This document shows, piece by piece, positions 4,249 through 63,822 of a stretch of 64,000 bases of DNA. A model generated the notes under the pieces. It was given only the letters and a program-made list of their open reading frames with translations, did not search any database and was not told the DNA's origin. Location of the stretch: IMG/VR virus record IMGVR_UViG_3300045049_000270; one strand, written 5' to 3'. A program made the position numbers and the translations under genes. Source of the DNA: a virus (lineage: Duplodnaviria; Heunggongvirae; Uroviricota; Caudoviricetes). The stretch's first letter is position 1. Every line of letters begins with the position of its first letter.

Positions 4249-4440
4249 ATGGTAACGACAAAAATTTATCTCTTTCCGAATGACCGTGCGCCTGAATTCA
4301 AAGACATTCATTTTGAATGCGAATCTCATCTTGAGCAAATCATGCGACAAATTGTTGCAAACACTAAGTTGATTCGTGTTAGTGATTTGCAATCAATCGC
4401 GGACACTCTTGCTACGCACGTCAAAGCAAATAGGTGTTGA
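4249..4440 (+). CDS. hypothetical protein
   Basis: AAGGAG RBS then ATG (MVTTKIY...). Confidence 0.4.
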   Translation: MVTTKIYLFPNDRAPEFKDIHFECESHLEQIMRQIVANTKLIRVSDLQSIADTLATHVKANRC

Positions 4441-4480
4441 CATCATGTTCAAGTGAAACTATCATTTGAATATGATGAAC
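4437..4480 (+). promoter_or_regulatory. family-P sigma70-like promoter cassette
   Basis: -35 TTGACA 4437-4442, N17 containing CATGTTCA, -10 TATCAT 4460-4465, TTGAA downstream. Confidence 0.55.
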
Positions 4481-4498
4481 ATCACGGAGCGTTCGAAA

Positions 4499-4747
4499 AT
4501 GGCCACAAAACTTGAGCATAACATCGAAGTTCTGGGTGAAGAAGTAGTGCGTGAGTTTTATCGAGTTATTGTAACCGAACCTCGCCCGATTATTGGTACT
4601 CACACTTACGATCACATCATATGGATTGGTGAAGCGAAACCTGAAAAATTGAATTATCTTAAACGCAAAGCACGTGAAAATGGTGCAAGCTTCCGTGATG
4701 TAAAAGTTGAAGTGAAGCGCTACGATTGGTCCCCAGAACTCGACTAA
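4499..4747 (+). CDS. hypothetical protein
   Basis: family-P promoter at 4437; GGAG RBS; ATG MATKLEH; terminator at 4746. Confidence 0.5.
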   Translation: MATKLEHNIEVLGEEVVREFYRVIVTEPRPIIGTHTYDHIIWIGEAKPEKLNYLKRKARENGASFRDVKVEVKRYDWSPELD

Positions 4748-4781
4748 AGATTAAGGGGCTAAATGGCCCCTTAATCTTTTC
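4746..4781 (+). terminator. rho-independent terminator
   Basis: AAGATTAAGGGGC-TAAAT-GGCCCCTTAATCTTTT. Confidence 0.7.
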
Positions 4782-4833
4782 ATAAATAGTTCCGAACGGT
4801 ATTAACACATTCCTTAACTCGGACGGGATTATT

Positions 4834-5202
4834 ATGGATAACAAATTCTGGGGTTATCACCTCATGCTGGACTGTGCAGGTTGTAAAGTTGACGGTGGCA
4901 TTGGTAGCAAGGAAGCAATCTACAACTTCATCAAGGAACTAGTCGTCGCTATCGATATGGAAGCGCACGGCGAGCCTATCATCGAATATCTGTTGCCAGG
5001 CGATCCAAAGCAGGGCTATAGCCTGATGCAGCTCATCACGACCTCCAACATTTGCGGGCATTTTATGGACCTCGATGGCACTGCTTACTTCGACGTATTT
5101 TCCTGTCGAGAATATGATCAGCAAACAGTGATCGACATGGTTAACAAGTATTTTGCTCCACAACGTACTCGAATTAATTTCGTTACACGTCACGCAGGCT
5201 AA
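4834..5202 (+). CDS. S-adenosylmethionine decarboxylase-like protein (SpeH/class 1 AdoMetDC fold)
   Basis: matches small pyruvoyl AdoMetDC: GYHLMLDCAGC ... QGYSLMQLITTSNICGHF ... AYFDVFSC; the canonical ESH cleavage site reads TSN here. Confidence 0.5.
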   Translation: MDNKFWGYHLMLDCAGCKVDGGIGSKEAIYNFIKELVVAIDMEAHGEPIIEYLLPGDPKQGYSLMQLITTSNICGHFMDLDGTAYFDVFSCREYDQQTVIDMVNKYFAPQRTRINFVTRHAG

Positions 5203-5221
5203 TTCTTCGCCGCCACAATAA

Positions 5222-5249
5222 ATATCCCCTACTAGTTAGGGGATTTTTC
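5222..5249 (+). terminator. rho-independent terminator
   Basis: ATCCCCTA-CTAGT-TAGGGGAT followed by TTTTC. Confidence 0.65.
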
Positions 5250-5666
5250 ATGGGTGCTCACCGTACACCTCCAAAGCCACCATATTTCGATACAGTGCCA
5301 GAAGGCACTTGTCGTTGGTGCAATCAAGAAGTTGGTCTAACGCCTAAGGGCAAGCAAAGCAAATCACGCTGGCATCCTGCCTGTCTAGCTGAATACAAAC
5401 TGTTGTTCTGGCCCGCCACTACCCGTCGCGCAGTGTACAAACGCGATCGAGCAAAGTGTAATCAATGTGGTGCCAAGTGCGACCGTTACCAGAATCCTTG
5501 GCACATGGATCACATCAAACCACTCGTGGAAGCTCAAGGAAACTTGGACTACTGGCGACTACCAAACTTGCAGACGCTATGCGAACCATGTCATACTGCC
5601 AAAACTTCCCATGAAGCAACTGAACGCGCAGCCAAACGTAGAGCAGCAAAAGACAAAAACGCTTGA
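5250..5666 (+). CDS. HNH endonuclease
   Basis: CNQCG...WHMDHIKP...NLQTLCEPCHTAKT (HNH/zinc-finger nuclease motifs). Confidence 0.75.
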   Translation: MGAHRTPPKPPYFDTVPEGTCRWCNQEVGLTPKGKQSKSRWHPACLAEYKLLFWPATTRRAVYKRDRAKCNQCGAKCDRYQNPWHMDHIKPLVEAQGNLDYWRLPNLQTLCEPCHTAKTSHEATERAAKRRAAKDKNA

Positions 5667-5720
5667 TACTTGGTTCATATGAACGTATCATCTTTGTATG
5701 GTGAACAGCAAAGGAGATTC
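5664..5720 (+). promoter_or_regulatory. family-P promoter cassette
   Basis: TTGATA-N16-TATCAT with GGTTCATATGAACG spacer; leader GGTGAACAGCAAAGGAG. Confidence 0.55.
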
Positions 5721-5722
5721 AA

Positions 5723-6182: not shown

Positions 6183-6240
6183 TTGATTCATGTTTAATAT
6201 GAACTTACCATCTGAACATGGTTAAACAATTGCAAGGAGT
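6183..6240 (+). promoter_or_regulatory. family-P promoter cassette
   Basis: TTGATT-N17-TACCAT; CTGAACATGGTTAAACAA leader; AAGGAG. Confidence 0.55.
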
Positions 6241-6646: not shown

Positions 6647-6704
6647 TTGATACCATGTTCAGATGAACATATCATGCGAAACATGGTAGACAGACAGGAG
6701 AAGG
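6647..6704 (+). promoter_or_regulatory. family-P promoter cassette
   Basis: TTGATA-N17-TATCAT; perfect palindrome ATGTTCAGATGAACAT in the spacer; leader AACATGGTAGACAGACAGGAG. Confidence 0.6.
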
Positions 6705-6706: not shown

Positions 6707-6925
6707 ATGAACAGCGCAGAACGTTACAAGGCACGTCAACAAGAACGTCGTGTTGAAACTGAACGTGCTCTCCTTGAATTTCAAGAATATGGTTTCGAGA
6801 TCTTCGAAACCAGTGAGCAAACGGCAAAGATTCACATGGAACAAGCTGCTGCTCTTCTTGCACGTTACCAATCTAAAGAACGCGTTCAGATGATGATCGT
6901 GGCCTTACAAAAAGCAATCTCATGA
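6707..6925 (+). CDS. hypothetical protein
   Basis: family-P promoter at 6647; GGAGAAGGAG RBS; ATG MNSAERYK; the track start lies inside the leader. Confidence 0.45.
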   Translation: MNSAERYKARQQERRVETERALLEFQEYGFEIFETSEQTAKIHMEQAAALLARYQSKERVQMMIVALQKAIS

Positions 6926-7212
6926 GTGTTATTGAAGAGCTCGACGAAGGTTCGCTAAATACATTCCTTTCAACATTTTATGTTGAAAGGGGAGTCATCA
7001 AAGCAAGCTTGCGTTCGTTTAAGAAACCAATATATCTTGTTGATCTGGATATAAGAAATTGGACGACAAGCAATCAAGATGAAGTAATATCTTGGTTGAA
7101 AGAAAATACAAAGGACGACTATGTTTCCGACATTGCCGTTGGCATGTTTTTCTTTCAAAGCCACGTCGATGCTATGCAGTTTTACCTAACGTGGGGAGAT
7201 CGCTTTGTCTAG
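6922..7212 (+). CDS. LTWG-family paralog (C-terminal FF..DA..FYLTWG motif)
   Basis: C-terminus FFFQSHVDAMQFYLTWG; ATGA overlap. Confidence 0.5.
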   Translation: MSVIEELDEGSLNTFLSTFYVERGVIKASLRSFKKPIYLVDLDIRNWTTSNQDEVISWLKENTKDDYVSDIAVGMFFFQSHVDAMQFYLTWGDRFV

Positions 7213-7531
7213 CATTGTCGAAATAACTGATGTCGAAGCGTTTTTGAACCAGTTCGACAAAGACATCAAGAAAGCAGTACGCCAGCGCATCAATACCCTT
7301 GACGAAGTCCCCTTTTATCTAGTGACTATCACGGGCAACGATGTGACAAAGAACGCTGCGGTTTATACCATGTTCGAGTGGCTGCTAGACAATGTTCAGC
7401 ATAAAGTGGTAAAGCAATACCCCCATGCACGCTTAGGATATACTGCGGTGAGCGCTATGGGTTATTACTTCTTCAAACAACACGCAGATGCACTTGCATT
7501 CTATTTCAGGTTTGGTAATGAATATGAGTAG
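7205..7531 (+). CDS. LTWG-family paralog
   Basis: C-terminus YYFFKQHADALAFYFRFG; TTG start overlapping the upstream stop. Confidence 0.45.
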   Translation: MSSIVEITDVEAFLNQFDKDIKKAVRQRINTLDEVPFYLVTITGNDVTKNAAVYTMFEWLLDNVQHKVVKQYPHARLGYTAVSAMGYYFFKQHADALAFYFRFGNEYE

Positions 7532-7917: not shown

Positions 7918-8010
7918 GTTGACTCAAGTATCAAATGAACACAGAATGTGATACATGGTAGACGCGCAGTGCAAAGAAAGCACTGCAAAATGGTAAAAAC
8001 TTTAAAGGAG
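7918..8010 (+). promoter_or_regulatory. family-P-like promoter (longer leader) upstream of WGR paralog 1
   Basis: TTGACT-N17-CAGAAT; TCAAATGAACA spacer; GATACATGGTAGAC leader; AAGGAG. Confidence 0.45.
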
Positions 8011-8532: not shown

Positions 8533-8565
8533 AATGGCTAGGTTTTACCCTAGCCATCGTCATTT
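8533..8565 (+). terminator. probable terminator hairpin (weak U-tract)
   Basis: ATGGCTAGG-TTTTAC-CCTAGCCAT. Confidence 0.45.
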
Positions 8566-8571: not shown

Positions 8572-8628
8572 TTGATGTTTTGTTCATTTGAACTTACCAT
8601 ATGATTATGGTTAACAACAGGAGCAAAC
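8572..8628 (+). promoter_or_regulatory. family-P promoter cassette
   Basis: TTGATG-N17-TACCAT; TTGTTCATTTGAAC spacer; ATGGTTAACAACAGGAG leader. Confidence 0.55.
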
Positions 8629-9108: not shown

Positions 9109-9165
9109 TTGTAACCATGTTCAGGTGAATGTACCATCTGAACATGGTAAAACAAACACGGAGTC
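9109..9165 (+). promoter_or_regulatory. family-P promoter cassette
   Basis: TTGTAA-N17-TACCAT; CCATGTTCAGGTGAATG spacer; CTGAACATGGTAAAACAAACACGGAG. Confidence 0.6.
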
Positions 9166-9611: not shown

Positions 9612-10181
9612 ATGAAGAAAATCATGTCGTTGTTTCAACGTAACTACGAAGGGGATCGTAAGGTTCGTGACGAAGTTACTCCGGGTGCTGAATGGGTTGT
9701 TCAGGGTGAAGGTTACGCTACTCGTAAATGGGATGGCGTGGCTGTGTTGGTAAAGGATGGTCAAGTCTTTAAGCGTTACGACGCTAAGACTGGGAGAACA
9801 CCTCCCATTGACTTCATTCCTGCCCAACCTAACCCTGATCCGAAAAGCGGGCACTGGCCTGGTTGGGTTCCCGCTGAAGGCCCGGAATCGAAGTACATTC
9901 GAGAAGCTGTCGAATGGGCGCAGAAGAACAAGTTTGCCGGTGGAATCCCTGATGGCACATATGAAGCGTGTGGTCCCAAAATTGGGACACGTCACGGTGC
10001 TAATCCTGAAGGTTTGACCGAACACATTCTTGTTCCTCACGGTAAGGATATCTTAGAAGATTGCCCGCGCACGTTTGATGGCATCAAAGAATGGTTGCGC
10101 GACAAGCCTATCGAAGGCATTGTTTGGCATCACGAAGATGGTCGCCTTGTGAAAATCAAGAAAGCTGACTTTCCGTACTAA
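9612..10181 (+). CDS. ligase-family nucleotidyltransferase (small ATP-dependent RNA/DNA ligase-like)
   Basis: motif I RKWDG (KxDG); motif IV PIEGIVWHH (EGhV); motif V RLVKIKK; AAGGAG RBS before MKKIMSLF. Confidence 0.6.
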   Translation: MKKIMSLFQRNYEGDRKVRDEVTPGAEWVVQGEGYATRKWDGVAVLVKDGQVFKRYDAKTGRTPPIDFIPAQPNPDPKSGHWPGWVPAEGPESKYIREAVEWAQKNKFAGGIPDGTYEACGPKIGTRHGANPEGLTEHILVPHGKDILEDCPRTFDGIKEWLRDKPIEGIVWHHEDGRLVKIKKADFPY

Positions 10182-10186
10182 GCTGT

Positions 10187-12337: not shown

Positions 12338-12390
12338 TTGATATCATGCTCATATGAACGTACCATATGAGCATGATTACTTCAGGAGAT
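12338..12390 (+). promoter_or_regulatory. family-P promoter cassette
   Basis: TTGATA-N17-TACCAT; CATGCTCATATGAACG / ATGAGCATG inverted repeat. Confidence 0.55.
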
Positions 12391-12634: not shown

Positions 12635-12906
12635 TGCAGTTACTCTCATTCGCAGCCTTCCAAGCCAGATATGGCGAAGATCGAGTTCGAAACTGGATGT
12701 CTCGAACAATGGGAAATGTTCGTTTCCTTCCTGGCTCAGTATTACTGCCTGATAAACACGATCACTTCTATGAAGTGGATCCTGATTGGCACACTGAAAA
12801 TGTGAAGGGGAAGATCGGTTTCAACCCAGCAGTAGATTTCATACCACCAGCAATTTATTTTCAGCATGAAACTGATGCGGTTGCCTGGTTGCTGGCTTGG
12901 GGTTGA
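12631..12906 (+). CDS. LTWG-family paralog
   Basis: C-terminus IYFQHETDAVAWLLAWG; ATGA overlap. Confidence 0.45.
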   Translation: MMQLLSFAAFQARYGEDRVRNWMSRTMGNVRFLPGSVLLPDKHDHFYEVDPDWHTENVKGKIGFNPAVDFIPPAIYFQHETDAVAWLLAWG

Positions 12907-12962
12907 CTTACGGTTCATATGAACGTATCATGTGAGTTCTTGTACTACGAAAGTCGGAGAAT
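12903..12962 (+). promoter_or_regulatory. family-P promoter cassette
   Basis: TTGACT-N17-TATCAT; GGTTCATATGAACG spacer. Confidence 0.55.
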
Positions 12963-14681: not shown

Positions 14682-14770
14682 TTGACGCCACATTTAAGTG
14701 ATCCTATCATTTGACATGTGGTGAGCAGTAACTGACAGACAACGCAACGTAGTAACTTTTCAAGGAGAAA
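14682..14770 (+). promoter_or_regulatory. family-P-like promoter (long leader) upstream of WGR paralog 2
   Basis: TTGACG-N17-TATCAT; TTGACATGTGGTGAGCAG leader; AAGGAG. Confidence 0.5.
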
Positions 14771-15228: not shown

Positions 15229-15282
15229 TTGACTTCAAGTTCATACGAACGAACAATATGAATGTGAAGACAACAAGGAGAG
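15229..15282 (+). promoter_or_regulatory. family-P promoter cassette (weak -10)
   Basis: TTGACT-N17-AACAAT; TTCATACGAACG spacer. Confidence 0.45.
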
Positions 15283-16868: not shown

Positions 16869-16920
16869 TTGATGTTCTATTCAAGTGAATTTACCATAAG
16901 GACATGGTAAACATTAGGAG
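16869..16920 (+). promoter_or_regulatory. family-P promoter cassette
   Basis: TTGATG-N17-TACCAT; AAGGACATGGTAAACATTAGGAG. Confidence 0.55.
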
Positions 16921-17159: not shown

Positions 17160-17216
17160 TTGCGGCTATATTCAAATGAATATATTATTTGAATATGGTA
17201 AATGACAAAGGAGAAC
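17160..17216 (+). promoter_or_regulatory. family-P promoter cassette
   Basis: TTGCGG-N17-TATTAT; TTCAAATGAATA / TTGAATATGGTAAATGACAAAGGAG. Confidence 0.55.
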
Positions 17217-17687: not shown

Positions 17688-17692
17688 ACTCT

Positions 17693-17750
17693 CGCAATCA
17701 TGTTCAACTGATACATTCATTTTAACATGGTAAACAACCACAAGGAGATA
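17693..17750 (+). promoter_or_regulatory. family-P promoter cassette (weak -35)
   Basis: TCGCAA-N17-ATTCAT; CATGTTCAACTGA spacer; AACATGGTAAACAACCACAAGGAG. Confidence 0.5.
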
Positions 17751-18140: not shown

Positions 18141-18196
18141 TTTACTGTTGATGTATTTGAGTATACCATATGAACATGACAAACGAAGGGAGATTG
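18141..18196 (+). promoter_or_regulatory. family-P variant promoter
   Basis: TTTACT-N17-TACCAT; ATGAACATGACAAACGAAGGGAG. Confidence 0.4.
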
Positions 18197-18875: not shown

Positions 18876-19091
18876 ATGAAACGATTTCTTGCTGTGCTTT
18901 TGAAGCTGTTTGCTACTGTTGCCTTCGCACGAGGGGGTGGCGGAGGTGGAGGTCATGGTGGCGGTGGCCATGCCTCTGCTGAGGGTCATAGCATTAATGG
19001 CGTTGATATTTGTGCTTGGGTGATTGTAATTATTGCAATGATTTCCGCTGTTGTTCTCGTCATTATGTTTTTTGTGATGCTTTTTGGTTGA
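18876..19091 (+). CDS. small secreted/membrane peptide with Gly/His-rich segment
   Basis: signal-like N-terminus; GGGGGGGHGGGGH; C-terminal TM helix. Confidence 0.4.
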   Translation: MKRFLAVLLKLFATVAFARGGGGGGGHGGGGHASAEGHSINGVDICAWVIVIIAMISAVVLVIMFFVMLFG

Positions 19092-19146
19092 CTCCATATT
19101 CATTTGAAGATACAATATGAATATGGCAACTATTTGAGAGGACAGG
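19087..19146 (+). promoter_or_regulatory. family-P promoter cassette
   Basis: TTGACT-N17-TACAAT; CCATATTCATTTGAAGA / ATGAATATGG inverted repeat. Confidence 0.55.
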
Positions 19147-19759: not shown

Positions 19760-19818
19760 TTGACACCAAATTCAGATGAGCACACAATAAGCATACGGTA
19801 AACAACAACAGGAGAACG
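19760..19818 (+). promoter_or_regulatory. family-P promoter cassette upstream of WGR paralog 3
   Basis: TTGACA-N17-CACAAT; AATTCAGATGAGCA spacer; ACGGTAAACAACAACAGGAG. Confidence 0.55.
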
Positions 19819-20449: not shown

Positions 20450-20508
20450 TTGATACTTTAACCAAATGAATGTATTATTTGATACATGGTAAACAAACAC
20501 AAGGAGTT
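20450..20508 (+). promoter_or_regulatory. family-P promoter cassette
   Basis: TTGATA-N17-TATTAT; AACCAAATGAATG / TTGATACATGGTAAACAAACACAAGGAG. Confidence 0.6.
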
Positions 20509-21137: not shown

Positions 21138-21188
21138 TTGCACTGTAGCCAAATGAATGTATAATTTGATATATGGTAAATGACAAGG
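21138..21188 (+). promoter_or_regulatory. family-P promoter cassette
   Basis: TTGCAC-N16-TATAAT; CCAAATGAATG / TTGATATATGGTAAATGACAAGGAG. Confidence 0.6.
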
Positions 21189-21938: not shown

Positions 21939-21995
21939 TTGCGAAGGTGGTTAGGTGAATTTATCATTTGAACATGGTAAACAAACAAGGAGAAT
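21939..21995 (+). promoter_or_regulatory. family-P promoter cassette
   Basis: TTGCGA-N17-TATCAT; TTGAACATGGTAAACAAACAAGGAGAATAAAGATG. Confidence 0.6.
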
Positions 21996-22194: not shown

Positions 22195-22252
22195 TTGCAA
22201 TCATGTTCAGATGAGCATATCATTTGAACATGGTAAACAAACAAGGAGAATA
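22195..22252 (+). promoter_or_regulatory. family-P promoter cassette (near-consensus copy)
   Basis: TTGCAA-N17-TATCAT; spacer TCATGTTCAGATGAGCA; leader identical to the 21939 copy. Confidence 0.65.
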
Positions 22253-22710: not shown

Positions 22711-22768
22711 TTGCAACCAAGTTCAAATGAATGCATAATTTGATACATGGTAAACAACAAAGGAGTTA
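22711..22768 (+). promoter_or_regulatory. family-P promoter cassette
   Basis: TTGCAA-N17-CATAAT; CCAAGTTCAAATGAATG; TTGATACATGGTAAACAACAAAGGAG. Confidence 0.6.
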
Positions 22769-23373: not shown

Positions 23374-23428
23374 TTGATTTTATATCCATTTGAACATAAT
23401 ATACGAATATAGTAATGAAAAGGAGAAA
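23374..23428 (+). promoter_or_regulatory. family-P promoter cassette (divergent leader)
   Basis: TTGATT-N17-TAATAT; CCATTTGAACA spacer; AAAGGAG. Confidence 0.45.
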
Positions 23429-23629: not shown

Positions 23630-23736
23630 TCAATTTTGAATATTTAAGAGGCTTTTGTGGCCTCTTCATTCTTCTGTCGTAATCATATTCAAATGAACGT
23701 TCCATAGGAACATGGTAAACAAACAAGGAGAACAAA

Positions 23737-24542: not shown

Positions 24543-24596
24543 TTGATGCCGTACTAATATGAATATACTATATGAGTATGGCATTCGACAGGAGCG
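24543..24596 (+). promoter_or_regulatory. family-P promoter cassette
   Basis: TTGATG-N17-TACTAT; ACTAATATGAATA / ATGAGTATGG inverted repeat. Confidence 0.5.
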
Positions 24597-25616: not shown

Positions 25617-25861
25617 AGATTTGATCCATATTTAAAATAATCGTACATAGAATGATAGGGGGTTTATATGTACGATTTGTTGATTGGGTTACTGTTCGGT
25701 ACCGGTTTTGTTGTTTTTATGCTAATTCCCTTGATGGTGAAAAACATGAAATATGAGTTTCCTGCCTCAAGAGAACATGAATTTTACGGCCGTTGAAAAC
25801 GCTTTACTTCTTGCTCATTTGAATTTACCATAAGAATATGGTAAATGAATAGGGAGTTCGT

Positions 25862-26160: not shown

Positions 26161-26215
26161 TTGCAACCAGGTTCAGATGATCTTATCATAAGAACATGGT
26201 TAAAACAAGGGAGAA
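26161..26215 (+). promoter_or_regulatory. family-P promoter cassette
   Basis: TTGCAA-N17-TATCAT; CCAGGTTCAGATGATC; AAGAACATGGTTAAAACAAGGGAG. Confidence 0.6.
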
Positions 26216-26604: not shown

Positions 26605-26683
26605 TTGACGTGAGCATCAAATGAACGTATTATTTGATACATGGTAAGCAGTGAAGACAACGCAACAAACTTTACAGGAGATC
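26605..26683 (+). promoter_or_regulatory. family-P promoter cassette (long leader) upstream of WGR paralog 4
   Basis: TTGACG-N17-TATTAT; CATCAAATGAACG; TTGATACATGGTAAGCAG ... CAGGAG. Confidence 0.55.
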
Positions 26684-27724: not shown

Positions 27725-28066
27725 ATGAAATATGATGAATTGATGAAAATGGCAATTGATCGGGCGATCAATGAAACTAAAACTAGAGTTGAGCATTCAA
27801 CTGCTCACTCATTTGAGGGACCAAATGTTGAATATTTTGTTATTCAAAGCTATGAAGCGTATGATCGGATGACAGACGAATTGAAAACTGACCAGGCAAA
27901 TGGCTTACGCTATTTTTCGAAACACGATATCGTTCGCTGGTCCGATGATTACGGTGCTATCGTTGAAGTGGCAAATCCTGATATCCTATTCGGTTTAAAG
28001 TGTCGCCTTTGGGGATTTGAACGAGAAACCGACGCTATTGGCTTCAGACTCACCTGGTGTGCTTGA
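27725..28066 (+). CDS. LTWG-family paralog
   Basis: C-terminus LWGFERETDAIGFRLTWC. Confidence 0.5.
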   Translation: MKYDELMKMAIDRAINETKTRVEHSTAHSFEGPNVEYFVIQSYEAYDRMTDELKTDQANGLRYFSKHDIVRWSDDYGAIVEVANPDILFGLKCRLWGFERETDAIGFRLTWCA

Positions 28067-28118
28067 TTTTGCCTTCATATGAAGCTATCATTTGGTTAGA
28101 TAGATGATAGCAGGAGAT
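28064..28118 (+). promoter_or_regulatory. family-P promoter cassette
   Basis: TTGATT-N16-TATCAT; CTTCATATGAAGC spacer. Confidence 0.5.
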
Positions 28119-28715: not shown

Positions 28716-28987
28716 TGAATGCCATTGAATGGGTTGAATTACTGCAATCGTTGGACAGGAAATCAACCGATAGTAGTGAAGTGATGCTCAAACGATTGTT
28801 TCCGTTCAAGTTCAAACTCATGCGCAATACAACTGAGCAAAAGCAGCTCATAGCTGAAGCTACAGATTGGTTGCTGAACAATGCCACCAGCGATGAATAT
28901 GTGTGGTTGGCATCAACCGTTCACTTCAAAGATGATGTTGTAGCAATGCAGTTTAGGCTAACATTCACCGACATAGTCAGCAGTTGA
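28715..28987 (+). CDS. LTWG-family paralog
   Basis: C-terminus STVHFKDDVVAMQFRLTF; ATGA-type overlap. Confidence 0.45.
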   Translation: MNAIEWVELLQSLDRKSTDSSEVMLKRLFPFKFKLMRNTTEQKQLIAEATDWLLNNATSDEYVWLASTVHFKDDVVAMQFRLTFTDIVSS

Positions 28988-29042
28988 CTGTGAATTCAAA
29001 TGAGCGCATCATAGCATTTTCTATAAACGAAATAAGAAGACA

Positions 29043-30018: not shown

Positions 30019-30078
30019 TTGATTCGACCACCAAGTGAACTTACCATCTGAGCATGGTAAGCAAACACAAGGAGAGTT
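30019..30078 (+). promoter_or_regulatory. family-P promoter cassette
   Basis: TTGATT-N17-TACCAT; CTGAGCATGGTAAGCAAACACAAGGAG. Confidence 0.55.
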
Positions 30079-30538: not shown

Positions 30539-30596
30539 TTGATGTCATCACCAAATGAACTTACACTAAGAGCATGGTGAATCAAAACAGGAGGAC
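30539..30596 (+). promoter_or_regulatory. family-P promoter cassette
   Basis: TTGATG-N17-TACACT; CACCAAATGAACT; AGAGCATGGTGAATCAAAACAGGAGG. Confidence 0.5.
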
Positions 30597-30794: not shown

Positions 30795-30850
30795 TTGCAT
30801 TATGAACCAAATGAATGCAAAATAGGAACATGGTAAACGACAAGGAGCAA
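30795..30850 (+). promoter_or_regulatory. family-P promoter cassette
   Basis: TTGCAT-N17-CAAAAT; AACCAAATGAATG; GGAACATGGTAAACGACAAGGAG. Confidence 0.55.
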
Positions 30851-32474: not shown

Positions 32475-32535
32475 TTGACAATTCATTCATATGAATGCAG
32501 AATACGATACATGGTAGACACAACAGGAGAATAGT
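32475..32535 (+). promoter_or_regulatory. family-P promoter cassette
   Basis: TTGACA-N17-CAGAAT; TTCATTCATATGAATG palindrome; GATACATGGTAGACACAACAGGAG. Confidence 0.55.
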
Positions 32536-32746: not shown

Positions 32747-32800
32747 TTGACACCATGTTCAGGTGAATGTATCATTTGAACATGGTAAAGAACAGGAGAT
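32747..32800 (+). promoter_or_regulatory. family-P promoter cassette (consensus copy)
   Basis: TTGACA-N17-TATCAT; CCATGTTCAGGTGAATG; TTGAACATGGTAAAGAACAGGAG. Confidence 0.65.
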
Positions 32801-34965: not shown

Positions 34966-35025
34966 TTGACGCCACATTCAGGTGAACTTATCATCTGACG
35001 TACGGTAAACAACGTGAGGAGGGAA
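34966..35025 (+). promoter_or_regulatory. family-P promoter cassette
   Basis: TTGACG-N17-TATCAT; CCACATTCAGGTGAACT; CTGACGTACGGTAAACAACGTGAGGAGG. Confidence 0.55.
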
Positions 35026-35907: not shown

Positions 35908-35963
35908 TTTACATCAAATTCATGCGAACATACTATCTGCGATAGGTAAACGAACAGGAGAAT
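35908..35963 (+). promoter_or_regulatory. family-P variant promoter
   Basis: TTTACA-N17-TACTAT; AATTCATGCGAACA; GATAGGTAAACGAACAGGAG. Confidence 0.45.
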
Positions 35964-42329: not shown

Positions 42330-42398
42330 GGTATTCATCTGTTGACTCCTTCACCAAATGAACGTAAACTTGGTTTATGGTCAAGAGCGGAGGAAAAG

Positions 42399-44265: not shown

Positions 44266-44303
44266 TAGAGCCACTAGGACCCTCGCCTAGTGGCTCTTTT
44301 TTC
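44266..44303 (+). terminator. rho-independent terminator
   Basis: AGAGCCACTAGG-ACCCTCG-CCTAGTGGCTCTTTTTTCG. Confidence 0.75.
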
Positions 44304-44314
44304 GCTTGCTTCAT

Positions 44315-44370
44315 TCATCATCTGAATATACCATCTACTTGTGAAACTCATGAAATGAATAAGGGGAAAG
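44315..44370 (+). promoter_or_regulatory. family-P promoter cassette
   Basis: TTGCTT-N17-TACCAT; CATTCATCATCTGAATA palindromic spacer. Confidence 0.45.
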
Positions 44371-45301: not shown

Positions 45302-45357
45302 TTGCAACCATGTTCAGGTGAATGTATCATTTGGCTATTGGTAAACAACAGGAGAAC
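45302..45357 (+). promoter_or_regulatory. family-P promoter cassette (consensus copy)
   Basis: TTGCAA-N17-TATCAT; CCATGTTCAGGTGAATG; GGTAAACAACAGGAG. Confidence 0.6.
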
Positions 45358-45623: not shown

Positions 45624-45680
45624 TTGCAACCATGTTCAGATGAATGTATCATTTGAACATGGTAAGCAAATGTGGAGGTG
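45624..45680 (+). promoter_or_regulatory. family-P promoter cassette (consensus copy)
   Basis: TTGCAA-N17-TATCAT; CCATGTTCAGATGAATG; TTGAACATGGTAAGCAAATGTGGAGG. Confidence 0.65.
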
Positions 45681-46539: not shown

Positions 46540-46598
46540 TTTGCGGAATGGTTCATATGAACATAAAATAATGATATGGTATACCACAAGGGGGTGTG
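46540..46598 (+). promoter_or_regulatory. family-P promoter cassette
   Basis: TTGCGG-N17-TAAAAT; GGTTCATATGAACA palindrome. Confidence 0.5.
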
Positions 46599-47233: not shown

Positions 47234-47290
47234 TTGCTACTATGGTTAAATGAACGTATCATTTTGTGCATGGTAGACAACAGGGAGGTG
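47234..47290 (+). promoter_or_regulatory. family-P promoter cassette
   Basis: TTGCTA-N17-TATCAT; GGTTAAATGAACG; GTGCATGGTAGACAACAGGGAGG. Confidence 0.55.
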
Positions 47291-48841: not shown

Positions 48842-48896
48842 TTGCTGTTTCATTCATATGAAGTTACTATTGTTCTAAGTTAAATAACAGGAGCGA
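48842..48896 (+). promoter_or_regulatory. family-P promoter cassette
   Basis: TTGCTG-N17-TACTAT; CATTCATATGAAGT; AACAGGAG. Confidence 0.5.
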
Positions 48897-49540: not shown

Positions 49541-49597
49541 TTGACTGTTATACCAAATGAACGTAATATACGAACATGGTAGACAAACAGGAGAGCA
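49541..49597 (+). promoter_or_regulatory. family-P promoter cassette
   Basis: TTGACT-N17-TAATAT; ACCAAATGAACG; CGAACATGGTAGACAAACAGGAG. Confidence 0.6.
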
Positions 49598-57070: not shown

Positions 57071-57081
57071 GGAGTGGCGAG

Positions 57082-57276: not shown

Positions 57277-57302
57277 TTTACAACTTCAAGGAGAAGATTT
57301 AC

Positions 57303-58220: not shown

Positions 58221-58241
58221 ACCGTTAGTTTTCAACAACGC

Positions 58242-58265
58242 AAAAGCCCCGAAAGGGGCTTTTGC
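58242..58265 (+). terminator. rho-independent terminator
   Basis: AAAAGCCCC-GAAA-GGGGCTTTTG. Confidence 0.75.
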
Positions 58266-58315
58266 CATATCAGTTATGCTATCATATATTATAGGATCAT
58301 CAATCCGAGGTGAAT

Positions 58316-58759
58316 ATGCTTGAACGATACGCTATCAAAACCATTAAATGGCACCAGAATACGGATTCTAGTCTCGAAGACGATGAAGAATACATTGCAT
58401 TCTTGTCCCAATATTACAACCTACGTAAAGACACGGATGCGTTTATGGGCGGGGCAAACAGCAATTGCTTTTCATTGCACGATGCCATCGTTAAGGATTT
58501 TTCGTCACGACGGATTGTGAATGATTACTTGATAAAGTTCAAAGTAGATGCGTTTCATTACTATGACTGTCATGAAATTGGTTACAAGAGAATGGTTTTC
58601 CAACTAAAAACCAAACAATCAATGCGTGAATTGTCAAGTGTTGAAATATTCGACTTCATGATTGACTGTAACGCCAAACAAGTGTTATTCATGTTTCATC
58701 GTAATCATCGGCTGACATATCTAATTGTTGATTATGAAACTTTCACAATTGAGCAATAA
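58316..58759 (+). CDS. hypothetical protein
   Basis: GAGGTGAAT then ATG. Confidence 0.45.
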   Translation: MLERYAIKTIKWHQNTDSSLEDDEEYIAFLSQYYNLRKDTDAFMGGANSNCFSLHDAIVKDFSSRRIVNDYLIKFKVDAFHYYDCHEIGYKRMVFQLKTKQSMRELSSVEIFDFMIDCNAKQVLFMFHRNHRLTYLIVDYETFTIEQ

Positions 58760-58797
58760 TATGACAACGATTGACGATAGAATACGAATGATATTGC

Positions 58798-58857
58798 TTG
58801 ACTTGTTACCAAATGAATGTATTATTTGATATATGGTGAACAACACAACGGAGGTTT
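58798..58857 (+). promoter_or_regulatory. family-P promoter cassette
   Basis: TTGACT-N16-TATTAT; ACCAAATGAATG; TTGATATATGGTGAACAACACAACGGAGG. Confidence 0.6.
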
Positions 58858-59373: not shown

Positions 59374-59481
59374 ACGTTGTTAAAGCAATCCCAGATGAAA
59401 TAAATATTTCAAAACAAAATTGGCACGGGCATTGTATAATAGATGTCTGTGCCATTTGCCAATTATTTTCTGGAGATTGTC

Positions 59482-60342
59482 GTGCAACATATCGAAGTTA
59501 CTTTAGCAGCAATCGGCGAAGGCGCCCAGATCATGGAGTGCAAATCAGGGCCTCTTGCACTCCGAGAACATATTTCAAAGCTTCCTATTCCCCTTCAATG
59601 GGGATCTTTTATAACCAGTGATGCTTCTTTGCTGGAACACGGTAAATTGGCGGTGGTCGAAGAATATATGCCAAGACTTGCCAATGCCGTACATTCTACA
59701 CTCTCAAAAGAACGTTTCCCTCTCGTAATTGGCGGTGATCATTCCTGTGCAATTGGCACTTGGAGTGCAATAGCTAATTTCTATCGAACAATGGGTGATA
59801 TTGGTCTAATCTGGATTGATGCTCATCTTGACAGTCATACTCCACAAACATCTGAAAGCGGAGCTCCTCATGGTATGCCTCTAGCTTGCCTTCTAGGATA
59901 TGGCAGCCGCAATCTCACCACCATACACGATGTTGTTCGAAAGCTACGTCCTCAAAATGTAGTGGTGATCGGAGCACGGAGCAGTGAAAAGGGTGAAGAA
60001 GATCTACTAGAAAGCCTTGGCGTTCGCGTTATGCGAATTGAAGAAGTGCATGACCGTGGTTTCGATGTTTGCTTAGACGAAGCTATTGAAATAGTTTCAA
60101 AAGAAACTGTTGGTTATGGCATCACATTTGACATTGATAGTCTGGATCCTATTGATGCACCAGGAGTTGGTTCACCAGAAGATGGTGGGTTGTGGCTATC
60201 TGATGTAGTAAGGACATTTGAAAGTATGAACAAACGCAAGTTGATTGGCTTCGAATTGGTCGAATATAATCCAGAGCGTGATTCTGGCGACCTTCGCACT
60301 GCCAAAGCTTGTGTTGCTATTCTTGATGCAATTTTGCCATAA
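59482..60342 (+). CDS. arginase/agmatinase-family ureohydrolase
   Basis: binuclear-Mn motifs GGDHS, DAHLDSHT, DIDSLDP; GGAG RBS then GTG. Confidence 0.65.
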   Translation: MQHIEVTLAAIGEGAQIMECKSGPLALREHISKLPIPLQWGSFITSDASLLEHGKLAVVEEYMPRLANAVHSTLSKERFPLVIGGDHSCAIGTWSAIANFYRTMGDIGLIWIDAHLDSHTPQTSESGAPHGMPLACLLGYGSRNLTTIHDVVRKLRPQNVVVIGARSSEKGEEDLLESLGVRVMRIEEVHDRGFDVCLDEAIEIVSKETVGYGITFDIDSLDPIDAPGVGSPEDGGLWLSDVVRTFESMNKRKLIGFELVEYNPERDSGDLRTAKACVAILDAILP

Positions 60343-60402: not shown

Positions 60403-60711
60403 ATGTCTTGGTTGCAACGCCCGACTATTGGAAGCCGTCGATATTACGTGATGTGCTTTGCTCCAGTCGCTATATTTCTGATCGCATATCCTACATTTCT
60501 GTACTTACTGCAGAAACCTGCTATCAACACCTTCATTCAATTTGCTTTGGCTGCGTTGTTTTGGGTATGGTGGTACCGTTTCGTTGATTGGGCTCAAGGC
60601 TATCGAGAAACAATATTTTCCTCATACGATCTTGATCAACCATATGTTATTCGATGGCCATCGAATAGTTCTGCCCCACCGCATCCTAATCCACCCGCCC
60701 CGAAGCCTTGA
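60403..60711 (+). CDS. small membrane protein
   Basis: promoter at 60345; TM helices; Pro-rich C-terminus. Confidence 0.4.
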   Translation: MSWLQRPTIGSRRYYVMCFAPVAIFLIAYPTFLYLLQKPAINTFIQFALAALFWVWWYRFVDWAQGYRETIFSSYDLDQPYVIRWPSNSSAPPHPNPPAPKP

Positions 60712-60762
60712 CATCATGTTCATATGAACATACCATATCTTTATGGTAAATGTTACGGAGAT
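60708..60762 (+). promoter_or_regulatory. family-P promoter cassette
   Basis: TTGACA-N17-TACCAT; perfect palindrome CATGTTCATATGAACATA in the spacer. Confidence 0.6.
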
Positions 60763-61090: not shown

Positions 61091-61150
61091 TTGACGCTAC
61101 GTTCAAGTGAACTTATCATTTGAACATGGTAAACAACGGCGGAGTGCAAA
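61091..61150 (+). promoter_or_regulatory. family-P promoter cassette (consensus copy)
   Basis: TTGACG-N17-TATCAT; CGTTCAAGTGAACT; TTGAACATGGTAAACAACGGCGGAG. Confidence 0.65.
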
Positions 61151-61728: not shown

Positions 61729-61790
61729 TTGAACGTTCACTCAGGTGAACGTATCATTTGAACATGGTAAACAAACAAGGAGATGACAAA
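61729..61790 (+). promoter_or_regulatory. family-P promoter cassette (consensus copy)
   Basis: TTGAAC-N17-TATCAT; GTTCACTCAGGTGAACG palindrome; TTGAACATGGTAAACAAACAAGGAG. Confidence 0.65.
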
Positions 61791-61791
61791 A

Positions 61792-61974
61792 GTGATCACG
61801 ACGGCGGCCCGCAAGCACTACGAAACGGTTGCAAAGATGACAGACTTGGAGCTTGCAAAGATCGAGGCCAACGAGATGCATCCGTTATATGATGTTGCTT
61901 GTGCTGAAATTGATGCACGTCTCAAAGGTTTGCATGCAATCGATACGGAACCATCGTTTTACGACCTTGCATAA
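61792..61974 (+). CDS. hypothetical protein (start ambiguous: ATG 61783 or GTG 61792)
   Basis: family-P promoter at 61729; AAGGAG lies immediately next to the ATG, so the GTG start is favoured. Confidence 0.35.
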   Translation: MITTAARKHYETVAKMTDLELAKIEANEMHPLYDVACAEIDARLKGLHAIDTEPSFYDLA

Positions 61975-61985
61975 GGAGAGTATAA

Positions 61986-62888
61986 ATGTCTTTCACCGAA
62001 AGTTTGTTCCGTATCGATGACACTGTCATATTCAAGCGTGGCCAAGATTACTATCCGACTCCAGGTGATCCGCCGATGGATCGTGCGAAAGGTGTTGTCG
62101 TCGGCAAAAATCGAGTGACCAGAATCGAAGAACGTTACGGCTTCGTATCAAGAGAGCCTGGTATCTGGGTGAGGGATGGTTCATGCCAAGTTAAATGGGA
62201 TCATGACGGCTCAGTGACGACTCCAAATGCATATAAGTTGGAGATGGTCAATCGAAAAGAATTCGAACGGCGAGCACAACAACGTCGCGAAGAAACGGCA
62301 CTGATCGGCTATACGGCATGTGACGACAAATACGAAAATGCCGAGAGAATTGGTGATCTACCTGTCACGAAGGGATGGGAGCTCGACTATATTCGGATGC
62401 CTGGTCGTTGGCGTGATCATTATAAATTCGGTCGTATTAGTCGTATTGATTATAATATCGGCGATTCGGAACGTGAGGTGGCATATTATGTTGATCTAGT
62501 CGACGAGTATCGCCAGACTGGGCACGGATCAACTTACGTCAATGAAGCAGAGTTGGAGGTGGTCGAACGGGGCAATGTTTATAAATTCTTCAACAATCAG
62601 CCTTTGGTTTTTGTTGACTTGAAGGATGAAGCATCGTTCTTTACTAATATCGGGCATTCAGCAGAAGTACGGCACCCAGAAAATGGTAACTACGGATGGG
62701 GCCTCGAAGATGTGCTGCGAGCGATTAGTGATGACATTGTTGACGGTTTCGCTGCCGACAATGATCTATTCTCGTTTGGGCACGGATCGCTTCGTGCAAT
62801 GCGCTGGCGTAATCGCGAACTTGGCAAGCGCATTCAACAAGCGACATTGAACGGCTTCGGAAGTCTCGATAAACCTGCTATCACATAA
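61986..62888 (+). CDS. hypothetical protein (300 aa)
   Basis: AAGGAGAG RBS then ATG. Confidence 0.5.
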   Translation: MSFTESLFRIDDTVIFKRGQDYYPTPGDPPMDRAKGVVVGKNRVTRIEERYGFVSREPGIWVRDGSCQVKWDHDGSVTTPNAYKLEMVNRKEFERRAQQRREETALIGYTACDDKYENAERIGDLPVTKGWELDYIRMPGRWRDHYKFGRISRIDYNIGDSEREVAYYVDLVDEYRQTGHGSTYVNEAELEVVERGNVYKFFNNQPLVFVDLKDEASFFTNIGHSAEVRHPENGNYGWGLEDVLRAISDDIVDGFAADNDLFSFGHGSLRAMRWRNRELGKRIQQATLNGFGSLDKPAIT

Positions 62889-62900
62889 CAAGGTGAAATA

Positions 62901-63059
62901 ATGATTTACATTGGAATTGCTTTAGTAGTATGGTTATTCGTTGGTTTCATTTGGATTCTTTCAAACTTTCAACTGCCGAAGTGGCTCGATTATGTTATCA
63001 CCGGCCCGTTTCGTATGATCGCTTATGTGATTGGGCTTCTATATTCGAAGTACGGTTGA
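62901..63059 (+). CDS. small TM peptide (52 aa, below the ORF-track cutoff)
   Basis: AAGGTGAAATA then ATG; IGIALVVWLFVGFIWIL helix. Confidence 0.3.
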   Translation: MIYIGIALVVWLFVGFIWILSNFQLPKWLDYVITGPFRMIAYVIGLLYSKYG

Positions 63060-63062
63060 TAC

Positions 63063-63365
63063 ATGGGTTGGGCAACAATTTACATTGGCAAATTGCTTCA
63101 GGGTGAGACTATTCAGTTTCGACCTAGAGGTCATTCAATGACTGGGCTAGTAAATGATGGAGACCTTGTTACAGTTGAGCCCAGAGGTACACGAATACCT
63201 GAGAAAGGGGACATTGTACTTTGTAAAGTGATGGGAGCGCAGTATCTACACCTCGTCAAAGCCGTTGATGGTAAACGTGTGCTGATAGGTAACAATCGTG
63301 GCGGGACAAATGGTTGGACATCACTATCACAGATATATGGTTTCTGCGTGAATGTTGAAAAGTAA
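63063..63365 (+). CDS. hypothetical protein (100 aa)
   Basis: ATG 4 nt after the upstream stop. Confidence 0.45.
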   Translation: MGWATIYIGKLLQGETIQFRPRGHSMTGLVNDGDLVTVEPRGTRIPEKGDIVLCKVMGAQYLHLVKAVDGKRVLIGNNRGGTNGWTSLSQIYGFCVNVEK

Positions 63366-63430
63366 GATAAGCATTGATGAAATAGCCAGATGGTTGTAAC
63401 ATCTGGCTATCATTCATTCTTGAGGTAACC

Positions 63431-63769
63431 ATGGCAGAACAGGATCAAAAGCAGAAGCAACCCAAACAACAAAAGCACAATATGCTTGATGCTAAGAAGG
63501 ATGAACCGACAATCAAGTTTGAACGTCGTGTATGCCATGGTTGGCATGCTGTAGTTTTTCCGACCGTACATGATCAAAACACAGTGCTTGAATTGTGGTT
63601 GTACGATGTCTTCGAATGGATGAAGATGCGTGGATTCACAGATTACTTTTGGTGTTACGCTCACGGTATCGAAAAGAAAGACCAAAACCGGCTGTCACCT
63701 GCTTTCTTCTTCAAAGATGAAATGCATGCTTGCAATATGATGTGGCGATTCAAGGGTGAAATTGTTTGA
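63431..63769 (+). CDS. hypothetical protein, distant LTWG-family-like C-terminus
   Basis: C-terminus FFFKDEMHACNMMWRFKG. Confidence 0.4.
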   Translation: MAEQDQKQKQPKQQKHNMLDAKKDEPTIKFERRVCHGWHAVVFPTVHDQNTVLELWLYDVFEWMKMRGFTDYFWCYAHGIEKKDQNRLSPAFFFKDEMHACNMMWRFKGEIV

Positions 63770-63822
63770 CGCGCGACTCAGGTGAGTTTATCATTTGGTT
63801 ACTGATTACATGGAGGGCGATT
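63766..63822 (+). promoter_or_regulatory. family-P promoter cassette
   Basis: TTGACG-N17-TATCAT; CTCAGGTGAGTT spacer; leader to GGAGGG. Confidence 0.55.

Follow-up and report, generated by a model that had tools for sequence, protein, structure and literature searches.

A 64,000-nucleotide stretch of DNA from a tailed phage (IMG/VR record IMGVR_UViG_3300045049_000270; Caudoviricetes), referred to here as the window, carries 51 near-identical cassettes of about 60 bp, all on the + strand. The cassettes look like sigma-70-type early promoter/leader modules that supply a ribosome-binding site to many small genes of early type. Nested in the promoter is an inverted repeat whose two arms co-vary and which is rarely intact where a terminator-like stem-loop lies directly upstream. 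We favour the view that this repeat is kept by base pairing rather than by its sequence. It may form a hairpin that substitutes for a terminator in RNA read through from the preceding gene, an interpretation that we hold with even confidence. The window forms part of the early, hyperplastic region in the ~524-kb genome of an uncultivated metagenomic phage.

If the predicted promoter activity is real, a clade of uncultivated ~0.5-Mb phages would run much of its genome from ~100 near-identical promoters of host type, a strategy that contrasts with that of jumbo phages that bring their own polymerases. The nested stem-loop would be a compact case of double use, with the same sequence serving as a promoter in DNA and, in read-through RNA, as a hairpin that substitutes for a terminator. 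The cassette is also a diagnostic motif for spotting the clade in metagenomes. Its ~200 natural promoter/leader variants form a library for synthetic biology, and it offers a defined substrate for studying how early genes are insulated and shuffled in large phages.

Architecture and conservation of the cassettes

Copies were found with a 70-column position matrix that was iterated from 22 regular-expression seeds and applied with a threshold of more than 12 bits. The -35 elements of the 51 copies start at positions 4187 to 63766, and the last core ends at 63813 (Table 1). No background sequence passed the threshold: the best minus-strand window scored 4.8 bits, and the top score among 20 shuffles was 11.5 bits. 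A simple regular expression for the -35 and -10 elements matched 24 times on the + strand and never on the minus strand. Also, the leader ACATGGTAAACAA, with up to two mismatches, occurs 23 times (22 of them on the + strand) versus 2.5 expected, a count reached in none of 100 shuffles. The original prediction, made from the letters alone, had placed 45 to 50 copies across the window; its coordinates hold, and the matrix adds a weaker copy at 4187 ahead of the first one that it listed.

Cassette positions are counted here with the initial T of the -35 element as 1, so that the -10 hexamer occupies positions 24 to 29. The matrix, the logo and the gene map agree with the shared architecture first proposed, in the order GCTTGAC or GCTTGCA (containing the -35), a 17-bp spacer, TAYCAT (the -10), an A/C-rich leader, AGGAG and a start codon. 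The logo consensus is aaaa gtGC TTGAc/TTGCa nCCATGTTCAnATGAAcnTAYCATtTGAACATGGTAAACAAaCAAGGAGa N6-8 ATG. The spacer measures 17 bp in nearly all copies (one-base shifts occur in those at 21138 and 58798), and the distance from the start of the -35 to the start codon that follows AGGAG is 57 to 63 nt in most of them.

In the -35 element the letters TTG are best kept (T1 and T2 in 49/51 copies each, G3 in 46/51). The -10 consensus has C instead of A as its fourth letter, and A25 (49/51) and T29 (51/51) are its most constant positions. TTG and letters two and six of the -10 are the classic contact positions of sigma-70. Their being best kept, at a fixed distance of 17 bp, is the hierarchy expected of a primary sigma factor. 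Many copies match 9 to 11 of the 12 hexamer letters in a general promoter scan. As the original prediction held, conservation in a logo of all copies goes well beyond a generic sigma-70 consensus, in that T24 and A28 of the -10 and also G32, G38, G39 and A42 are kept, and the spacer word TCAnnTGAA carries 1.2 to 2.1 bits per position. A conserved A at position 36, ~7 nt past the -10, is the predicted transcription start. Readings of the promoter as a sigma-32, extracytoplasmic function (ECF) or extended -10 type were rejected by reasoning from the logo, to which either their spacing or their letters are unsuited. A leaderless mini-open reading frame (ORF) beginning at an ATG at positions 36 to 38 was likewise rejected: although 111 of 167 copies have it, it ends at widely varying places.

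The cassettes are closely fitted between genes. The window holds ~130 mostly small + strand ORFs, and 30 of the 51 cassettes start no more than 15 nt after the preceding stop codon. Cassettes stand 3 to 7 nt past the upstream stop or overlap it, and several have a TGA stop inside TTGAC. A search of the whole window against Rfam at the gathering score returned two tRNAs only, and no RNA family for the cassette. Two stretches of 6 to 9 kb lack cassettes (35955-42342 and 49588-58798) and contain larger, tightly packed genes, including those for an HD-domain protein and an NMT1-like protein. Read-through, or another class of promoter, presumably serves these genes.

Base pairing in the nested inverted repeat

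The original prediction described an inverted repeat that brackets the -10. The repeat is real, but it is longer than was described, forming one long dyad in which positions 7 to 20 (CCATGTTCAnATGA) are complementary to positions 26 to 39 (TCATnTGAACATGG) around a 5-nt centre at -14. Its arms occupy the spacer and the region from -6 to +4, with the -10 falling in the loop and 3' arm. Folded as RNA, the consensus reaches -18 to -23 kcal/mol.

Evidence for pairing comes from comparisons of arms within and between copies. In the window copies alone, complementarity of the arms within a copy exceeds that between copies, and none of 5000 permutations reached the observed value. Further statistics were obtained from 150 copies, with shuffle-based significance that, as the tool itself warns, is inflated by kinship among the copies: 69.8% of stem cells are paired, versus 67.0 +/- 0.5 in shuffles, and double-sided changes number 144, versus 96 +/- 8, with none of 500 shuffles reaching either observation. 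The covariation score is 0.212, versus 0.07 to 0.09 when the partners are slid, and the pairs (11,35), (12,34) and (16,30) are individually significant. Real copies fold at a mean of -10.1 kcal/mol, versus -8.3 for chimeras assembled from the left and right halves of different copies (p=2e-4).

Some copies have arms that are wholly replaced yet still complementary, for example GGTAGCCAC/GTGGCTACC, with z from -4.4 to -13.4. One such copy forms a perfect 16-bp stem, and another an 18-bp stem that extends into the -35 and takes the place of the usual leader. Also, the invariant G19 has the unusual C of TATCAT as its partner, and copies with this C have more outer pairs than those with A (8.09 versus 6.58, p=0.002), so the nested stem would account for the non-consensus base in the -10.

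The palindromes originally noted at 6653 and 60714 are both present. The one at 6653 corresponds to an alternative register (i+j=33), in which the left arm pairs with the middle TGAAC. Apart from one weak pair, this register shows no significant co-variation, and it was therefore rejected in preference to the register that pairs positions 7-20 with 26-39.

Upstream terminators and a putative role in RNA

A terminator stem-loop directly upstream of the -35 is found in ~9 to 12 of the 51 window copies and in 31 of 200 unique cassettes overall; most cassettes instead abut the upstream stop codon. Among the 200 cassettes, the 31 that lie behind a terminator-like element fold at a mean of -6.1 kcal/mol, and 3% of them form a strong hairpin (-12 kcal/mol or lower). 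The corresponding values for the 169 without a terminator ahead are -11.2 kcal/mol and 39%. This contrast (p=5e-6) was obtained with a stricter definition and a larger set than our early, cruder classifications, which gave the same trend at p=0.01 to 0.05, as did the window alone at p=0.014. Overall matrix scores barely differ between the two classes. Folding is also better for the sense than for the antisense strand (p=4.5e-7), an advantage that disappears once G.U pairs are forbidden. Together, the terminator contrast and the sense-strand G.U asymmetry point to a structure that is used in RNA read through from upstream.

Five of the terminator-bearing cassettes in the window (18141, 23374, 30539, 32475 and 48842), and many in the sequences L004, L006, L022, L024, L056 and L073, share a conserved junction, TTCATTTGGTGC, between the terminator stem and the -35. 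The TCATTTG of this junction is the same word as cassette positions 26 to 32 (TATCATTTGAAC).

In the mechanism that we propose, the cassette would act in duplex DNA as a promoter for the host holoenzyme. Since most cassettes abut the upstream stop without a terminator, upstream transcription would run through them, and in the read-through RNA the repeat would fold into a stem-loop immediately after the upstream gene. This stem-loop would replace a separate terminator, whether by forming or protecting a 3' end, by processing or by attenuation. The cassette's own transcript would begin inside the 3' arm and thus would lack the hairpin, leaving its leader open. As repeats, the cassettes could in addition provide patches of homology for the gain, loss and swapping of genes.

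Several observations weigh against a terminator-substitute hairpin. Strong hairpins form in only about one third of copies. Hairpin integrity differs between orthologous cassettes, so selection on any single copy must be weak. The core of the left arm (T13 C14 A15 .. T18 G19 A20 A21) varies less than its partners do (C27 in 70% and T26 in 60% of the 200 cassettes), so pairing alone is insufficient, and this suggests sequence-specific recognition by polymerase or by a protein. The nested stem does not have the form of a classic intrinsic terminator, as it has no U-tract and is followed by UAAACAAAC. The G.U excess is confined to a few columns (6-8, 11, 16 and 17), others showing the opposite, and is suggestive only. 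In addition to the kinship already mentioned, the classes with and without a terminator could in part be sub-families by descent, and template switching can by itself homogenise quasi-palindromes, with no function involved. Finally, a scan of 185,579 reference genomes for the cassette motif gave single chance matches only and indicated no host.

Alternative explanations

The original prediction combined a promoter and shared leader with an operator for a dimeric regulator. The promoter and leader are consistent with the architecture described above; the operator, as proposed, fares less well, and we regard it as an unlikely second choice after the terminator-substitute hairpin. A dimeric or tetrameric regulator of the phage or host would bind the palindrome over the spacer and -10 and so switch the early regulon off or on, much as dispersed operators such as those of P1 C1 and the phiC31 CIR sites serve many promoters. 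The dyad, centred at -14, does overlap the -10 and the start site, and two occurrences of TCAnnTGAA (positions 13-21 and 26-34) lie 13 bp apart. In the spacer, the letters TCA..TGAA are 90 to 100% invariant, above their pairing partners, making partial recognition possible. However, a protein that reads bases would not tolerate outer arms that co-vary and can be exchanged for other complementary sequences, and a half-site of 14 bp is too long for one DNA-binding domain. A global switch also gives no reason for the palindrome to be nearly absent behind terminators in promoters that are otherwise normal. There are no orphan sites, as 21 of 23 matches to TTCANNTGAA fall within cassettes. A gene at 19271-19582 does specify a small helix-turn-helix protein, but it has no link to the motif, and no cognate regulator was found among the window proteins. 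This 104-aa protein, the sole DNA-binding candidate seen in the window, has a sub-threshold Sigma70_r4/IclR-like match (E=9e-5; 22.4 bits versus a cut-off of 24.1). A mutational origin of the repeat, which we consider improbable, would make it the functionless palindrome of a founder cassette, kept or re-made by template-switch correction and gene conversion among ~100 copies. Decayed arms in many copies, the differing integrity of orthologues and the modest size of the co-variation excess would then follow, and concerted evolution is expected of repeats this numerous. Such a by-product would not be expected to persist in relatives whose shared genes are only ~71% identical, to be selectively absent behind terminators or to keep a costly non-consensus C in the -10 solely in copies that have the stem.

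We are more doubtful still about roles for the repeat as a structure in DNA. A cruciform or folded single strand could tie promoter activity to supercoiling, or it could be a structure-specific site at which recombination or nicking moves modules of promoter and gene. Arms that conserve structure rather than sequence, an AT-rich dyad centre, cassettes that bound gene indels and many nearby HNH endonuclease genes all fit this possibility, for which PeSL recombination and mini-circles provide a precedent (PMC2839356; PeSLs are introduced below). However, on average ~30% of stem cells are unpaired, which is unfavourable to cruciform extrusion, and a symmetric duplex or cruciform does not predict either the G.U strand asymmetry or the anti-correlation with terminators; nor was a recombinase identified within the window. 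The same low standing applies to an analogy with integron attC sites, in which folded single strands would be read by shape. By that analogy, units of promoter, palindrome and ORF might be mobile gene cassettes, and the array a phage-borne, promoter-carrying super-integron by which half-megabase phages swap early genes, an equally doubtful extension. Co-oriented small ORFans and cassette-bounded indels are in keeping with it, as are the arms, but the signs of an RNA role and the lack of a visible recombinase count against it as well. Least probable in our estimation is a phage-specific promoter, in which a phage sigma factor or RNA polymerase, injected or made early, would read TCA..TGAAC and GGTAAAC, with sigma-70 likeness being partial. 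Conservation well past both hexamers is compatible with this, transcription proteins of their own are common in huge phages, and only ~12% of the genome has been seen. Against it, the TTG, the 17-bp spacing, the TA..AT geometry and the conservation hierarchy suit primary sigma factors, the features of N4-type hairpin promoters do not match, and Pfam and PHROG scans of the 122 window proteins revealed no sigma factor or polymerase apart from the sub-threshold match of the 104-aa protein.

Comparison with known elements

The closest known elements are the promoter-early stem-loops (PeSLs) of the T4-like phages RB49/phi1, PST/T4 and nt-1/KVP40 (PMC2839356, PMC4122927). A PeSL consists of a conserved intergenic stem-loop, a strong sigma-70-like promoter (N17), a Shine-Dalgarno sequence and an ATG, and PeSLs precede small ORFans in hyperplastic regions and bound indels between relatives (PMC2839356, PMC4122927). 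The cassettes contain the promoter, Shine-Dalgarno and ATG part of this arrangement, repeated between genes ahead of small ORFans, and they may likewise mark the borders of indels between relatives. The 9 to 12 window cassettes with a terminator stem-loop upstream of the -35 have the exact PeSL layout. In most window copies, however, the stem-loop is nested within the promoter instead of lying upstream, and it has no U-tract. Unlike the PeSL phages, the ~524-kb genome has no detectable nucleotide similarity to any GenBank phage. Judged by sequence, the cassettes belong to a new clade of ~0.5-Mb phages and are closest to PeSLs, with the stem-loop nested in most copies. Our literature searches found no description of a phage promoter nested in a hairpin.

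T4 early promoters are also numerous: dozens of very strong sigma-70 promoters with consensus beyond the hexamers capture the host polymerase right after infection (PMC2988021). The cassettes are similar in number, type and possession of extra consensus regions. However, the extras of T4 are an UP element and TGn, whereas here there is no TGn and the additional conservation is in the inverted repeat and the transcribed leader. The MotA box of T4 middle promoters, (a/t)(a/t)(a/t)TGCTTtA, is required at 12 +/- 1 bp from the -10 (PMC2988021). As was pointed out originally, the tGCTTGA or tGCTTGC of most copies matches this box in its letters but not in its distance, which is 19 bp (A4 to T24). 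At that distance it works geometrically as a -35.

Abundant intergenic inverted repeats that can supply promoters also occur in Neisseria, as the Correia repeat enclosed elements (PMC2649163). These are chromosomal and transposon-derived, and their transcribed hairpins are bound, cleaved or protected by RNase III (PMC2649163). Correia and repetitive extragenic palindromic (REP) elements occur in both orientations, without a fixed leader or ribosome site, whereas the window copies are co-oriented with the gene and carry the promoter within the hairpin. REP elements are chromosomal intergenic inverted repeats whose hairpins stabilise upstream mRNA. In T7, RNase III hairpins between early genes were reportedly found by Dunn and Studier to define and stabilise mRNA ends in a read-through early transcript. 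The nested stem-loops would likewise stand between genes of a presumed read-through early transcript; T7 hairpins differ in being few, not fused to promoters and built of longer, irregular stems. The early promoters of the N4 virion polymerase, three copies in all, have a stem of 5 to 7 bp with a 3-nt loop on the template strand and no -35. The cassette hairpin is similarly centred ~12 to 14 nt upstream of the (here predicted) start, but it has a stem of at least 14 bp, a 5-nt centre, a TTG 17 bp upstream of the -10 and a sense-strand bias.

The phage, its relatives and possible gene exchange

One window protein is 100% identical to a protein from the Joint Genome Institute (JGI) on a contig of 523,572 bp. 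The original prediction had named related phage genomes as a place to look for the motif, and the same cassette is indeed found in a syntenic sister contig of 523,836 bp (IMG/VR), whose shared genes are 65 to 87% identical, and in all of the more distant relatives (~71% identity of shared genes), comprising fragments from at least seven other metagenomes and a 290-kb IMG/VR contig. Identity between non-orthologous cassettes reaches 94%, which exceeds that of orthologous genes, so the element is under selection or concerted evolution across the clade. A megablast search and a search with a 72-nt consensus against 50,697 GenBank phage records found neither similarity nor cassette. A 300-kb contig with a 55%-identical homologue (L008) was set aside as unrelated, with a GC content of 58% and no cassette.

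In the sister contig, cassettes span at least 235 to 402 kb (at least 167 kb), and one block is on the opposite strand. The block comprises L004 and L007 (286-295 kb), as opposed to L006 onward (301 kb onward). Early transcription would accordingly diverge from a putative switch point near 295-301 kb.

When the window is compared with the sister contig between conserved anchor genes, whole units of a cassette plus an ORF set the two apart, in several putative gains, losses and replacements. For example, the Tpt1 gene adjoins a cassette in the window and is missing at the sister's syntenic place. By analogy, such cassette-bounded differences resemble what PeSL-mediated modular exchange would produce.

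Table 1. Cassettes and upstream terminator-like elements in the window. Bits, matrix score; hexamers, -35/-10; pairs, paired positions of the stem; dG, free energy of the RNA fold (kcal/mol).
Feature	Coordinates	Strand	Bits	Hexamers	Pairs	dG	Start codon	Remarks
Cassette core	4187..4234	+	27.5	TTGACT/TATCAT	10/14	-3.1	ATG 4249	Weak copy
Cassette core	4437..4484	+	49.9	TTGACA/TATCAT	14/14	-19.7	ATG 4499	-35 overlaps upstream stop
Cassette core	5663..5710	+	58.5	TTGATA/TATCAT	9/14	-6.8	ATG 5723	
Cassette core	6183..6230	+	45.1	TTGATT/TACCAT		-7.3	ATG 6246	
Cassette core	6647..6694	+	53.7	TTGATA/TATCAT		-13.7	ATG 6707	
Cassette core	7919..7966	+	34.6	TTGACT/CAGAAT		-6.2	ATG 8018	Long leader
Cassette core	8572..8619	+	59.5	TTGATG/TACCAT		-8.2	ATG 8631	Terminator-like stem-loop ahead
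Cassette core	9109..9156	+	58.6	TTGTAA/TACCAT	13/14	-21.5	ATG 9170	Strong palindrome
Cassette core	12338..12385	+	44.7		13/14	-19.9 (z -7.6)	ATG 12395	Compensatory arms ATCATGCTCA/TGAGCATGAT
Cassette core	12903..12950	+	28.7	TTGACT/TATCAT	12/14	-9.1	ATG 12966	
Cassette core	14682..14729	+	30.0			-17.8 (z -6.2)	ATG 14774	Compensatory arms CCACAT/ATGTGG; long leader
Cassette core	15229..15276	+	35.6	TTGACT/AACAAT		-9.4	ATG 15286	Terminator ahead
Cassette core	16869..16916	+	46.3	TTGATG/TACCAT		-6.7	ATG 16927	
Cassette core	17160..17207	+	57.7		14/14	-14.9	GTG 17220	Compensatory CTATATTCA/TGAATATGG
Cassette core	17692..17739	+	39.7	TCGCAA/ATTCAT	12/14	-8.9	ATG 17754	
Cassette core	18141..18188	+	28.3	TTTACT/TACCAT		-3.7	ATG 18199	Terminator ahead
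Cassette core	19088..19135	+	42.2			-11.7 (z -5.1)	Next ATG 19271	Compensatory CCATATTCA/TGAATATGG; next called gene encodes small helix-turn-helix protein
Cassette core	19760..19807	+	45.7	TTGACA/CACAAT		0.0	TTG 19822	No palindrome
Cassette core	20450..20497	+	43.5	TTGATA/TATTAT		-5.4	ATG 20513	CCAAAT..ATTTG inner-stem type
Cassette core	21138..21185	+	32.1			-4.9	TTG 21197	One-base register shift
Cassette core	21939..21986	+	53.3	TTGCGA/TATCAT		-6.5	ATG 22000	
Cassette core	22195..22242	+	67.7	TTGCAA/TATCAT	14/14	-19.3	ATG 22256	Best copy
Cassette core	22711..22758	+	53.8	TTGCAA/CATAAT		-8.7	ATG 22774	Stem-loop ahead
Cassette core	23374..23421	+	43.9	TTGATT/TAATAT		-0.1 (z +1.1)	ATG 23432	Terminator ahead; no palindrome
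Cassette core	23677..23724	+	54.1			-5.9	ATG 23737	Terminator ahead
Cassette core	24543..24590	+	42.1	TTGATG/TACTAT	12/14	-15.0	ATG 24600	
Cassette core	25803..25850	+	52.6	TTTACT/TACCAT		-7.6	ATG 25862	
Cassette core	26161..26208	+	54.4	TTGCAA/TATCAT		-12.9	ATG 26220	
Cassette core	26605..26652	+	46.2	TTGACG/TATTAT	12/14	-8.9	ATG 26687	Long leader
Cassette core	28063..28110	+	27.4	TTGATT/TATCAT		-5.3	ATG 28123	
Cassette core	28984..29031	+	28.3	TTGACT/CATCAT		-3.8	Next called ATG 29163	Degenerate leader
Cassette core	30019..30066	+	49.0	TTGATT/TACCAT		-8.6	ATG 30082	Orthologues L003:1661, L010:197
Cassette core	30539..30586	+	44.0			-9.0	ATG 30600	Terminator ahead
Cassette core	30795..30842	+	48.4	TTGCAT/CAAAAT		-2.7	ATG 30854	No palindrome
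Cassette core	32475..32522	+	36.7	TTGACA/CAGAAT		-4.2 (z -0.5)	ATG 32538	Terminator ahead; no palindrome
Cassette core	32747..32794	+	63.6	TTGACA/TATCAT	14/14	-20.3	ATG 32805	Strong palindrome
Cassette core	34966..35013	+	47.1	TTGACG/TATCAT		-11.0	ATG 35031	Orthologue L005:3267
Cassette core	35908..35955	+	43.7	TTTACA/TACTAT		-3.1	ATG 35970	Orthologue L005:4111
Cassette core	42342..42389	+	41.6	TTGACT/TAAACT		-6.3	ATG 42399	
Cassette core	44306..44353	+	20.6	TTGCTT/TACCAT		-1.7	ATG 44373	Weakest copy; strong terminator ahead
Cassette core	45302..45349	+	55.7	TTGCAA/TATCAT	12/14	-9.8	ATG 45361	
Cassette core	45624..45671	+	63.9		14/14	-21.0 (z -6.7)	ATG 45684	Strong palindrome
Cassette core	46541..46588	+	35.0	TTGCGG/TAAAAT		-2.8	ATG 46601	
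Cassette core	47234..47281	+	44.1	TTGCTA/TATCAT		-12.1	ATG 47294	
Cassette core	48842..48889	+	41.4	TTGCTG/TACTAT		-2.5	ATG 48899	Terminator ahead
Cassette core	49541..49588	+	45.5	TTGACT/TAATAT		-6.0	ATG 49600	Orthologue L176:5698
Cassette core	58798..58845	+	23.9	TTGACT (-35)		-5.6	ATG 58860	16-bp spacer variant
Cassette core	60708..60755	+	40.8	TTGACA/TACCAT		-10.8	ATG 60767	
Cassette core	61091..61138	+	66.4	TTGACG/TATCAT	13/14	-14.3	ATG 61153	
Cassette core	61729..61776	+	60.5	TTGAAC/TATCAT		-12.3	GTG 61792	
Cassette core	63766..63813	+	33.7	TTGACG/TATCAT		-7.9	ATG ~63825	
Terminator-like stem-loop	8517..8568	+				-16.6 (span)		Before cassette 8572; GC-rich, T-rich tail; stem 8534-8557
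Terminator-like stem-loop	15170..15217	+				-30.2		Before cassette 15229; tail CTCTTTTGC
Terminator-like stem-loop	18081..18135	+				-27.7		Before cassette 18141; GGCCACC GAAA GGTGGCC, then TCATTTGG
Stem-loop	23314..23362	+				-20.0		Before cassette 23374; TCATTTG follows
Terminator-like stem-loop	23620..23671	+						Before cassette 23677; stem 23646-23666
Stem-loop	30485..30534	+				-29.8		Before cassette 30539; TCATTTG follows
Stem-loop	32427..32471	+				-27.9		Before cassette 32475; TCATTTGG follows
Terminator	44267..44297	+				-21.7		Before cassette 44306; stem, then TTTTTT
Stem-loop	48796..48836	+				-24.1		Before cassette 48842; GTTCATTC follows

Other genes and features of the window

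The window proteins match 43 PHROG families, including RNA ligase, Tpt1, S-adenosylmethionine (AdoMet) decarboxylase, an arginase-family enzyme, a Lar-like protein and several HNH endonucleases. Genes for HNH or homing endonucleases adjoin several cassettes (5250-5666, 29163-29495 and others), and at the syntenic position the sister contig lacks the one at 5250-5666. Just ahead of the first cassette, the gene at 3426-4190 encodes a protein with a radical SAM domain (6e-8).

A set of genes resembling those for RNA repair lies at 9612-12059 and 34410-34958. Its RNA ligase has the top match to an RNA-ligase PHROG among the window proteins (1e-86), and Pfam RLIG1 matches 9612-10181. The set also includes a 411-aa CoaE/P-loop kinase-like protein, a cytidylyltransferase-like protein and the RNA 2'-phosphotransferase Tpt1 (4.6e-43). 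Polyamine-related genes at 4834-5202 and 59443-60342 encode the AdoMet decarboxylase (1.5e-16) and the arginase/agmatinase-family enzyme (2e-56).

A diverged family of paralogous proteins of 76 to 116 aa shares the C-terminal motif (D/E)A..F.L(T)W/Y/F G and has no Pfam match. Its genes lie at 6922-7531, 12634-12906, 14098-14623 and 27373-28715, with probable further members at 13160-14058, 27113-27376, 28715-28987 and 63431-63769. Nine members fit the strict pattern and more can be recognised by eye; many are in tandem, and many have their own cassette.

An island of low GC content (~40%) at 40600-44300 contains the one gene on the minus strand that is convincing (40689-41654; weak matches to PP-loop ATPases). 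A two-way terminator lies at ~40660-40685, the AT-rich divergent intergenic region has no cassette, and tRNA-Val(TAC) and tRNA-Pro(TGG) are encoded at 43308-43500.

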